Shown here one piece after another: positions 24,301 through 49,100 of a stretch of 64,000 nucleotides of DNA (position 1 is the stretch's first letter; every line of letters starts with the position of its first letter). The stretch lies in contig CAXHJY010000416.1 of the NCBI GenBank assembly GCA_964016885.1, positions 63,312 through 127,311 on the forward strand, written 5' to 3'. The stretch is from Eledone cirrhosa (Eukaryota). The position numbers and the translations under genes are program-made. The notes below the pieces were generated by a model that worked only from the letters and a program-made list of their open reading frames with translations, was not told where the DNA came from and searched no databases.

Positions 24301-26262
24301 ATTATTGAAGCAATAAATATTCTCTTTGGATGACAAATTCTTTACAGAGGCATGAAAACATCACATTTATTGAGGTAGGAAAATTGAAAATGTATCATTC
24401 ATGTCATTTTGTAGAACATTATTGACATAAATGAAGTGGTTACAAATGACAATTGAAACTGAGTTGTGGAACTAGTTCTGCTCTAACTGTTAACCTTTTC
24501 ATGACCACATTTCTAATGAGATACACTCTATTTTAATTAATTAATGAAGAATTTTGAGGTATATACTAAATTTATTAATTATTCTATTACTAAGATAGTA
24601 ACTTAATGTAAGGTTCTTATATAAATTTATATTGAAAGATTTTAATTTAAATTGGAAACCTATAAAATGGGTGATTTTGTTTCATAGAACTAGAGTTGGT
24701 TGGTAACTAAAGGGTTAATAAAACAATCTTGGACCAACTAGTAGGATTTTAGAAGAGGTAACTTTGATTTAGATTGTAGATTAGCCATATAAAGCTTAGT
24801 TCAATGACACTGGAATATTATCATACCACACACACAGACAAGTGTACACACACACACTCATCTGCCTGCACACACAAATAAGCACATACATACAGAAGTG
24901 CAAACACACACAAGCACACACACAAAAGCATATGCACAAACACAAGCACACATACATAAGTGTAAACACATTTCCATACAAGCGCACACACAAGAACCAG
25001 CATACACACAACCAAGCACACACGTACACTCACACAGAAGCACAGATGCAAACATGCACAAGCACACAAACAAGATTAAATGCACATACACAAGTACAAG
25101 CACACATACATACAGAACACTTCAAGTAATGACTTAAAAATAAATATATTTAAATGTGAAGTTAATACCCTTCTCCACCACAAAATAGCTATGTTTAGAT
25201 GTTTAGTTAATACTCTTCTCCACAACAAAATACAATGGTTTTTACCTTCTTTGTGAAAGGTATAGCACCATCAGTTCCCTCTTGGTATTTCTCAAGTTCT
25301 TTCTTCAGTTCAGAAACATACCACTGTTCATCCTTCAACTGTTTCTTTAATTCTTCCATCTGTGACCTGAGAGAAATATTTCCATTTTATTCATCATCAT
25401 CATCATCACCATCATCATTTAACATCCATTTTCTCTGTCAGCAAAGATTAGCTGGGTCTTCATAAACCAAGTCAGTACTTAAGTGGAACTACTGACCTGT
25501 TAGATGGACTGGAGCCCTCCATCTTGCTTACATATGATTCAGTGTTCCACTGAGTGAATTTTATCATGACACCAGCACTAGGGAGATTGTTATGTCTTTG
25601 ACACATTTGAAGGGTCTTCCCAACCCTTAATTTGGCAGGTTTTCTATCTGGATACCCTTCTTATCACCAATCACTTTACAGAATATAATTGGTACATTTA
25701 TCATGTAGATCAGCAGCACTAGAGAAGTTGTCATACCATTGACACAACTGAAGAGTCCTCATGACTCTTTTTAGCATGGCTTCTACAGTGTGTGTGTGGT
25801 GGTGGGGCTCTTCTTATCACCAACTACCTTGGAGAGTGTACTGGGTGCATTTTCATGGCACCAGCACTAGAGAAGTTGTCGTGCCATTGACACAGCTGAA
25901 GGTTCTCCAGAAACCTTTGAGCATGGCTTTTACTGCGGGGCGCCCTTCTTATTAACTACCTTGGAGGGTGTACTGGGTGTATTTACATGGCACCAGCACT
26001 AGAGCAGTTGTCAGTTATTGTCTCAACTTAAGAGACCTCCCTACCATATTCTTAAAATGAAATAACCAAAATATGTTCAACTTACTTTTCTTCCACTGTC
26101 GGAATTTTGCCATCATGTACAGACATGTAATGTTTCTCCAAGGCATCTTGAGAAGGTAATGGTTTTTTGCAGAGTGGACACAGAAAGCCTTCCTAGAAAG
26201 ATAAAAAAAAAAAATTACATAAGCATGAATACGTATAACAGAATAGAAATATAAAGTTGGAA

Positions 26263-26317
<55 letters not shown>

Positions 26318-46100: not shown

Positions 46101-49100
46101 ATTGTTCTGTGTCCAGCCAGGTTTGTACAACAGGTAAGAAAAATGATGATTCGATGACGGTTTCTTCTGATAGGAGCCTCTTCCACGTCGGAAGATCGAA
46201 GTGTGTTTTCTTGTCTTCTTCAATACTTTCATAAACGGCTTCGGAGATTTAAAACTTATGTTTCAATTGGTGCTTCCATTTCCACACGGTTCTATTGTCT
46301 TATTTACAAAAATATATATTTCTATATATGTTTGAAGTTCCTTGGAGTTGGTCAGAGTATCGCTTAAAGCTTTCTTTGTAGCGCCTATCCTTTAATTTAT
46401 CTTTTTCAAAACAATTATATATTATGTATATATATTTATTAAATATGTATTTATATATATATATTTATGTATATATATATATTTATTAAAGAATTGCTGC
46501 TTTCACCCTTAATGTGAAAGCAGCAATTCTTTGCTTAAACTTTAATCTGTTATTTTAATAAATATTTGCTCTACAGTTCTTATATATTTGATATATATTT
46601 ATCCTTATCGAACCCTCTTTGGATTTTAGTCTTCAAATTTATTATTATTAGTATATATATATATATATCAATTTATTATTATTTATTATTATTAGTATAT
46701 ATTTATTATTATTAGTATATATATATATAATATATATATATCCTTTGGGAGCCCCTATATGGACACACTAGAAGTGGAAGACCAAGGTTAACGTATGTTG
46801 ATGCCCTAAGGACAGACACTGGTCTATTGGAGACACAGGACATGGCAGCGATAATGAGGGACAGAGACCGCTGGAGAGAACTCGTCCATGGATCTCGGGA
46901 ATTTTACCCGCCTTAGATAGATATATATATATATATATCATCATCATCGTTTAACATCTATCTTCCACGCTAGCATGGGTTTCATCATTTCATTTTATCA
47001 TTTTATCATTTCATTTTACGTCCACTTTTCCCTGCTTGCAAGGGTGGGACGGGAACTGATTCTGGCTTGATTTCTACAGCTGGATGCCCTTCCTAACACC
47101 AACCTCATTTACAGTGAGTGCTGGGTGCTTTTTTGTCGTGGCACCTACACAACCACTTTGCAGTGGAATGATAGGGATCCCAGTCCCTATCATCTCATTT
47201 CTACAGCTGAGTAAACTGGAGCAATGTGAAATAAAGTGCCTTGCTCAAAGAAACAACACATCACCCGGTCTGAGAATTGAACTCACAACCTTTCGATTGC
47301 AAGGCCAATGCTCTAACCACTAAGCCATGTGCCTCCATATTTAAATATATAGTTCCTCAGAGGAATAACAACACACCCAGGAGCTAGACATATCGATGTA
47401 TTGACTGAGTAAAACACACTTCAACAACATGTGTACCTGTCTTTTCCACACAAATTCAGACTGCCTGAAGAGGTCACAGCCAATGATAGCTGTCACCGAA
47501 ATATATATAGCAGTAAATTTATAATTTATAATAAACGAAGCCAAATTTTACATATTTGACTTAATTATTTTATATATATATATAGTTAAAGAAATGACAA
47601 CACAAACACAAGGATGCAAAAAAACAAAGTCTTATTAGTATCACGCTTAGAAGAAAGAAGAGGGTTCAGTGCTTCGGACGCAAGTCCTTCTTCAGGAAAT
47701 GGAGAAGGGGGAGAGAGGGGGAGTGAGAGACTTCAGAGAGAGAGAGAGAGAGAGAACAGGTTGGAACATTGGAGTTTGGAAAAAAGACTAAGAAGGTTGT
47801 GGTGGTAGATGAGTGGGGGCCAAGGTAGAGAGTCCAGGTGTGTTATGGGTGTGGTTCTGTGTGTGCTGATGGGGTGAATTTCATAGGTGTGCATTATTGT
47901 TTCTGTCTGTGTGTGTATGTACAAATGTGTGTGTATGTACAAATGTGTCTGTTTTTTATATTGTGTGTGTGAATGTTTGTGCGTGTGTGAATTCTTTGGG
48001 TTTTTTTGTGTGCATGAAAATATGTGTGTGTGTGTGTTTATGTATGGGTATGTCTGTGTATGAGTGTGTGTGTGTTTATGTATGGGTATGTCTGTGTATG
48101 AGTGTGTGTGTTTATGTGTGGGTTTCTTGTGTTCTCATATCCACACACTTAAACCCACAGCATAATATATGATATCTAAGAACCACAAAAGTAGTCTAAC
48201 AACATTCATCCTGGAATACTTACACCACCATCAGCATAATCTTTCTTGACAACATCATGTTCTTGGAAATGCTTCTGAAGGATCTCTGCTGAATTAAAGG
48301 TTTTCATACACTGAGGACAAATGAAACCCTGAAAAATACATAATATGATGATATATGAATATATAAATAAAATATTCCATTTTGGGAGTGTCAGTCATTT
48401 GTTAAATTTACCACTCCAACTTGTAATATGGTCATGATGGTGACATGACAAAAAGGACCCAGTTCAACCTATAAATTGATCGCGTTGGTGACCTAACAAA
48501 AAGCATTCAGTTCAACCTGTCAAATTGGTCATTTGGAACCATGATAAAAAGCACCCAGTCCACACTGTAAATGTGGTTGGTGTTAGAAAGGGCATCCAGC
48601 CAAATAAATCAAGCCAGAAATGGTTCTGTGTGAGTAAGACATGGTCATCTGATCAAACTTTTTTCACAATGAGACAACTCGTCTAACCCATGCTAGCATG
48701 GAAAAATGGATATTAAACAGTTATGAGGATGATGATGATGCAGTATTGTATATGTTATTTGTGTGTGTAATGTGATGTGATATCATATGATATGATATAT
48801 ATGATATGATATATAGTATGGTGGCAAATAAACAGAATATCAGGTAGAATACTTTGTGGTATTTCTTCTGGTTTGCTGCACTCTGAGTTTATATTCCACT
48901 GATGTAAACTTCACCTTTCATCTTTTTGAAGTCAATTAAAAAGGTGCCAGTCTAGTAATGAGGTTGATTCTTTTTCCATATCTCTTTCTCATTTCTTCTT
49001 TATCACCCTCTCTCTCCTTCTCTGGAAGAAATCAACTTTGTTCAGACCTGGAGAGGGATGCGCTCCACCAGGTTTTAAATGCCACTAACAACTCCACCAG

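Follow-up and report, generated by a model that had tools for sequence, protein, structure and literature searches.

A cephalopod EEA1 gene encodes two tandem EEA1-type C2H2 fingers, probably from an old mollusc exon duplication

Results

Two finger exons of an EEA1 gene

The window, that is, the whole stretch of 64,000 nt of Eledone cirrhosa DNA analysed here, forms the terminal part of a 127 kb contig (C443) in a 3.0 Gb genome. On its minus strand it carries the N-terminal fingers and part of the coiled coil of an EEA1 gene (Table 1). Both finger exons are flanked by AG/GT splice ends at the positions claimed in the first-pass annotation, whose exons, phases and residue calls were all right. 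It was equally correct that skipping of the finger-1 exon would preserve the reading frame and that the finger-2 exon is not skippable alone.

In the numbering of the human protein (alignment to 3MJH_B), finger 1 has Glu39, Phe41, Ile42, Met47, Phe60 and HX3H spacing, the equivalent of Glu39 being the last codon of the upstream exon (60440-60369). Finger 2 has Lys47, Tyr60 and HX4H spacing. Searches of the PDB place the human EEA1 finger 3MJH_B first among the matches of finger 2 (E 6.8e-7); for finger 1 it is the best single-finger match (E 5.6e-6; fifth overall, after four multi-finger arrays). The fingers are not chance motifs, because a single spliced contig contains both of them together with the adjoining coiled-coil exons. 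No third finger-like motif is found on the minus strand of window positions 19000-64000. A whole-genome search with finger 2 (five candidates scored) gave one strong match, namely finger 2 itself, and weak matches to finger 1 and to an unrelated array.

No exon of the main transcript lies inside the inter-finger intron, as finger 1 and finger 2 are contiguous in the contig coordinates of two transcript runs (X1 and X2, see below). The intron contains a degenerate (TA)n array of 2.6 kb (window 30099-32754) and a 4 kb segment at 54% GC (window 42001-46000) that is possibly a mobile element.

Table 1 Features of the EEA1 gene, in window positions except for the candidate first coding exon
Feature	Position	Strand	Length and phase	Support and remarks
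Candidate first EEA1 coding exon	L034:2676	minus	39 coding nt, then GT donor	FYVE exons in L031
EEA1 exon 5' of the fingers	60369..60440	minus	72 nt, phase 0-0	Shares a contig with finger 1 in X1 and X2
Finger-1 exon	48224..48328	minus	105 nt, phase 0-0	C2H2; spliced into transcript contig
Inter-finger intron	26193..48223	minus	22 kb	Repeat-rich; fingers 1 and 2 adjacent in X1 and X2 contigs
Finger-2 exon	26086..26192	minus	107 nt, phase 0-2	C2H2; spliced into transcript contig
First coiled-coil exon	25246..25366	minus	121 nt, phase 2-0	Motif common to oyster EEA1; joint 25364-26084 in 3 runs; tblastn
Coiled-coil exon	24174..24237	minus	64 nt	Joints in 3 runs
Coiled-coil exon	22867..22973	minus	107 nt	Joint in 3 runs
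Coiled-coil exon, limits approximate	21508..21591	minus		tblastn with oyster and clam EEA1
Coiled-coil exon with conserved EEA1 motif, limits approximate	18868..19011	minus		tblastn with oyster and clam EEA1
More coiled-coil exons	207..15247	minus		Limits without RNA support; gene extends past window start
Coiled-coil open stretches	~13282-12962, 8391-8125, 2432-2298, 2049-1972, 1517-1233, 374-207	minus		Within 207..15247

Gene identity and split assembly

In tblastn searches, oyster and clam EEA1 match the window exons in order and then exons on the chromosome-scale contig C1, which run through the ALQELGRENQSLQ segment to the C-terminal FYVE domain (315.893-315.898 Mb). At the N-terminus, a C2H2 finger like that of 3MJH is present in two copies, and the long coiled coil carries EEA1-specific motifs (tblastn with oyster and clam EEA1). 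The FYVE domain behind the ALQELGRENQSLQ segment is present on C1, its link to the window contig consisting of collinearity and an assembly gap. In identifying the gene as EEA1 with two EEA1-type fingers, the first-pass annotation was correct.

The gene is split by the assembly. The unplaced contig C443 contains its middle part, and the FYVE exons and the candidate first coding exon are located at C1:315,893,000-315,923,000 (L031-L034). An N gap in C1 at 315,920,422-621 has the 3' exons of EEA1 on one side and the candidate first coding exon on the other, and C443 likely fits this gap, as judged from the order of the exons. No overlap between the ends of C443 and the flanks of the gap was found, so that the link between the two contigs rests on collinearity.

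Both fingers are joined in transcript contigs

Transcript contigs from 5 of 17 listed runs were aligned, and the gene is found in three of them. Run X17 is from the window's own organism, X1 and X2 are from two relatives, and the three belong to separate studies; the EEA1 gene is absent from the contigs of runs X3 and X4. None of the three gene-holding runs is recorded as RNA; that their contigs are joined over CT..AC introns was the reason for taking them as transcripts.

The 4732-nt contig of X1 contains the upstream exon (130-203), finger 1 (204-308) and finger 2 (308-416), and the 2273-nt contig of X2 contains the same three at 81-154, 155-259 and 259-367. In X17, finger 2 is located at 310-418 of a 4893-nt contig with zero mismatches and a depth of 38.5; finger 1 and the upstream exon each have a total depth of 38.5 too, and inclusion of finger 1 in this run rests on the equal depth. 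In each of X17, X1 and X2, a single contig accounts for the whole depth over finger 2. One contig per run joins both fingers to the upstream exon, and the two-finger form is therefore the main form in three organisms.

The first-pass annotation had presented the finger-1 exon as a cassette by which Rab capture is tuned through splicing. Only inclusion is seen, both in the 3/3 gene-holding runs, where no finger-1-skipping contig is present (assembled contigs drop minor forms), and in oyster EEA1, where 10/10 N-terminus-bearing sequences keep both fingers (15 listed of 24 cluster members). Among these ten are the oyster RefSeq isoforms X1-X3, whose variation sits at the last FYVE exon.

Two-finger EEA1 in other animals

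A coiled-coil exon was used as a query against 1.84 billion representatives. Among the 12 matches, P0011 comprises the N-terminal part of an EEA1 and carries two fingers; another, P0004, was dropped as a repeat artefact. P0011 as a query led to three named proteins, namely EEA1 of Ruditapes and of Magallana with two fingers each and EEA1 of Steinernema with one. Homologue searches with single window exons (two exon queries) gave no match. In an Atlas search, finger 2 retrieved only generic C2H2 clusters and P0011 retrieved EEA1 clusters. The AlphaFold model of P0011, which is not the window protein, has two separate beta-beta-alpha units, followed by a linker modelled at low confidence and then by a coiled coil. 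Foldseek with this model returned generic C2H2 arrays only, none of them at E <= 0.001, and 3MJH is absent among the matches listed.

A metagenome scan yielded 67 loci. One of them (L094) is a two-finger EEA1 with exon phases as in the window (finger 1, 111 nt, phase 0-0; finger 2, 101 nt, phase 0-2). Two loci are EEA1-like transcripts with one finger (L092, L093) and three are isolated finger exons (L108, L140, L157). The other 61 have flanks that look like those of Rabenosyn-5, in many cases including a FYVE domain of the Rabenosyn type behind the finger, and contain 25 distinct fingers. The lone EEA1-like finger exon at L140:795-900 has Lys47, and its last His is replaced by Cys (C2HC).

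EEA1 of bivalves (Magallana gigas XP_034307073-6, Ruditapes philippinarum XP_060565596.1) resembles the window gene in its tandem fingers, in the split between Met and a basic residue at position 47 and in its exons, which are collinear up to the FYVE domain; its linker has 12-14 residues, compared with 15 in the window. In contrast to the window, the first finger has Gln39 and HX4H spacing, and the oyster gene has alternative last FYVE exons. No second copy of the last FYVE exon was found in the ~33 kb behind the last exon of the window gene (L031, L079-L081). What the alternative last exons in the oyster (P0018-P0024) encode is the latter half of the FYVE domain; isoform X3 is without that half. 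Another oyster sequence (P0029) has a 135-residue, fibronectin type III-like N-terminal extension, which is a read-through or an assembly chimera. The nematode protein (Steinernema KAK0411300.1) is similar to finger 1 in Met47, Phe60 and HX3H but has a single finger.

The possibility, raised in the first-pass annotation, that double fingers are the common invertebrate state is correct for the molluscs seen, although nematode EEA1, L092 and L093 have one finger each. The finger pair is common to the molluscs seen and not universal in invertebrates; it is likely an old mollusc exon duplication that is constitutively included. The two-finger architecture is already visible in public oyster and clam proteins. 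A description of a two-finger EEA1 was not found in a literature search that lay mostly outside subscription journals, and the fingers dealt with in PMC2185588 and PMC7036122 are single ones.

The two fingers differ at conserved positions

In the five two-finger species (human numbering), position 47 is Met in 5/5 first fingers and Lys or Arg in 5/5 second fingers. Position 53 is Ala in 5/5 first fingers versus Pro or Gln in second fingers, and position 60 is Phe in 5/5 first fingers versus Tyr in 4/5 second fingers. Glu39 is present in 5/5 second fingers; three bivalve-type first fingers have Gln at this position and the first finger of the window has Glu. Finger 2 keeps Phe41 together with a hydrophobic residue at 42. 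By this comparison, Lys or Arg in place of Met47 is a conserved difference of finger 2 across all five species. Position 47 is hydrophobic in 23/25 Rabenosyn-like fingers and also in human, nematode and L093 EEA1. It is basic in 2/25 Rabenosyn-like fingers (Lys or Arg in L103 and L137), and a basic residue therefore does occur in single fingers of the Rab-effector type.

Human EEA1 (3MJH, with Rab5A) shares with the window gene the N-terminal C2H2 finger, the long coiled coil and the C-terminal FYVE domain, and has the same residues as finger 1 at 39, 41, 42 and 47. It has one finger instead of two and differs from the window in the Lys47 of finger 2 and in the Phe60 and HX3H spacing of finger 1. 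The replacement of Tyr60 by Phe and the HX3H spacing had been taken as divergence of finger 1. Phe60 is, however, the rule (37/42 fingers compared), and HX3H is also the spacing in nematode EEA1, so that finger 1 is a canonical finger of the Rab5 type.

The C2H2 finger of Rabenosyn-5, whose copy in this genome is located on C4, belongs to the same finger family as the window fingers and shares an EGF-x-CP start; Rabenosyn-5 itself is a different protein with a single finger. The designation of finger 2 as Rabenosyn-like in the first-pass annotation fails, because finger 2 is less like the Rabenosyn-5 finger of its own genome (9/23 identities) than finger 1 is (12/23), and the EGFLCP start is present in nematode EEA1 too. 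A finger 2 derived from Rabenosyn-5 was rejected because its BLOSUM sum is 57 with the Rabenosyn finger of the same genome and 69-86 with the second fingers of other animals. A tree of EEA1 and Rabenosyn fingers (22 columns), suggested in the first-pass annotation, groups the fingers in part: the first/second labels require 2 changes versus 4.8 when shuffled, with 0/500 shuffles as low, so that first and second fingers cluster beyond shuffled labels. Neither group is resolved as a clade (2 changes each) and 3/39 branches are starred, so that a single origin does not follow from the tree.

Two further assignments are not supported. For a ubiquitin-binding UBZ finger, the scores with Pfam zf_UBZ (14.4 bits for finger 2 of the window, 22.6 bits for the second finger of P0011) are under the curated cut-off of 25.6, and finger 1 is a weak match as well. 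A DNA-binding role was set aside because the linkers here, at 12-15 residues, exceed the canonical TGEKP link, in an otherwise endosomal protein.

Rab genes in the same genome

Canonical Rab5 has a tandem paralogue ~60 kb away on the same strand, a divergent Rab5-like gene whose switch I is changed (L082-L083 on C2, ~323.158-323.170 Mb, and L088-L090). A Rab22/Rab31-like gene with an intronless G domain lies on the minus strand of C1 (L051:1375-2025, 386.56 Mb); its best PDB matches are Rab22A and Rab31. A predicted complex of finger 2 with this G domain, GTP and Mg, computed without an alignment and with an uncertain finger fold, has a score of 0.01 and was given no weight in either direction.

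Discussion

Human EEA1 is a coiled-coil homodimer, and its N-terminal finger catches Rab5 on the incoming vesicle. The FYVE end anchors the homodimer to PI3P on endosomes; once the finger has captured Rab5-GTP the molecule collapses, and the collapse is proposed to start at the two fingers of the dimer (PMC5902227). The finger is also reported to be required for binding of Rab22a (PMC3521694), and Rab21 is listed as a further interactor of EEA1 (PMC12162657). Binding of Rab5 to the human protein is reported to be impaired by F41A/I42A (bioRxiv 2022.04.15.488498) and by E39A/F41A (bioRxiv 2020.07.17.208652).

For the window gene, the evidence favours, with reasonable though by no means full confidence, two tandem fingers that stem from one old duplication common to clams and oysters and are constitutively included, finger 1 being the Rab5/Rab22 head and finger 2 a weaker avidity site. 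Finger 1 is predicted to act as an ordinary binding head for Rab5-GTP and Rab22-GTP. Finger 2 would likely be a second, weaker site for Rab5-family GTPases, its predicted ligands, and would raise avidity. An EEA1 dimer would then show four fingers instead of two, on a short flexible linker. Finger 2 keeps the positions at which mutations were made in the human protein to block Rab5 binding (Glu39 in 5/5, Phe41 and a hydrophobic residue at 42). Met47 and Tyr60 of the human finger presumably take part in Rab binding as well. A finger that keeps 39, 41, 42 and 60 but not 47 would most likely be a weaker second site.

The main rival is a different ligand for finger 2, such as Rab21, Rab22, the divergent Rab5 paralogue or ubiquitin, so that the tip of EEA1 would read two signals. 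Position 47 is hydrophobic in nearly all Rabenosyn-like fingers, and the EEA1 fingers of human, nematode and L093 agree with them, so that a basic residue fixed in every second finger, next to Met in every first finger, may indicate such a ligand. The complementary pattern at position 39 in three bivalve-type proteins (Gln in finger 1, Glu in finger 2) points in the same direction, as do two genes of this genome, the divergent tandem paralogue of Rab5 and the Rab22/31-like gene. The residues used for Rab5 in human EEA1 at 39, 41 and 42 are, however, retained in finger 2, a basic residue at 47 is also found in Rabenosyn-like fingers, and the UBZ match that could speak for ubiquitin stays under its cut-off, is weaker still in the window and is shared in weak form by finger 1. 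A different ligand is rather unlikely. The same is held for a two-finger head that predates the split of cephalopods and bivalves and in which finger 2 was retuned, by the basic residue in place of Met47, to another Rab or partner; such a dual-specificity tether is a doubtful reading. If it were true, a minor isoform with finger 1 skipped, should one exist, would keep only the retuned finger.

A finger 2 without any ligand, kept only as a folded spacer between finger 1 and the coiled coil or as a unit that caps the dimer, would agree with the loss of Met47 and with the long tree branch of the window's finger 2 (0.8), but conservation of the surface positions 39, 41, 47 and mostly 60 over five animals is not expected of a spacer, and we regard this as improbable. 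Just as improbable is regulated skipping of the finger-1 exon, by which tissues would differ in having one-finger or two-finger tethers. The frame does survive skipping, assembled contigs conceal minor isoforms, and the finger-1 donor of L094 is weak (GGG/GTTTGT). Tandem inclusion demands the same phase, however: because both finger exons start in phase 0, the first needs a length divisible by three, and its 0-0 phase is no sign of a cassette; the exon before it is frame-symmetric as well. Skipping is seen neither in the gene-holding runs nor among the listed oyster N-termini. The finger-1 donor of the window is the full consensus (GGT/GTAAGT), its pyrimidine tract (12/17) is ordinary, the other five exons having 9-16/17, and a skipped form would lose the finger with Met47.

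The significance of the favoured arrangement, with a constitutive pair of fingers, is modest, as the architecture is already present in RefSeq oyster and clam proteins and a splicing switch is without support. The gene is a real and old variant of a known tether. EEA1 is the model of a long-range tether, and molluscs would provide a natural four-finger version of it with one fixed contact change, in which the influence of valency and of the Met47 contact on Rab choice and tethering could readily be tested.
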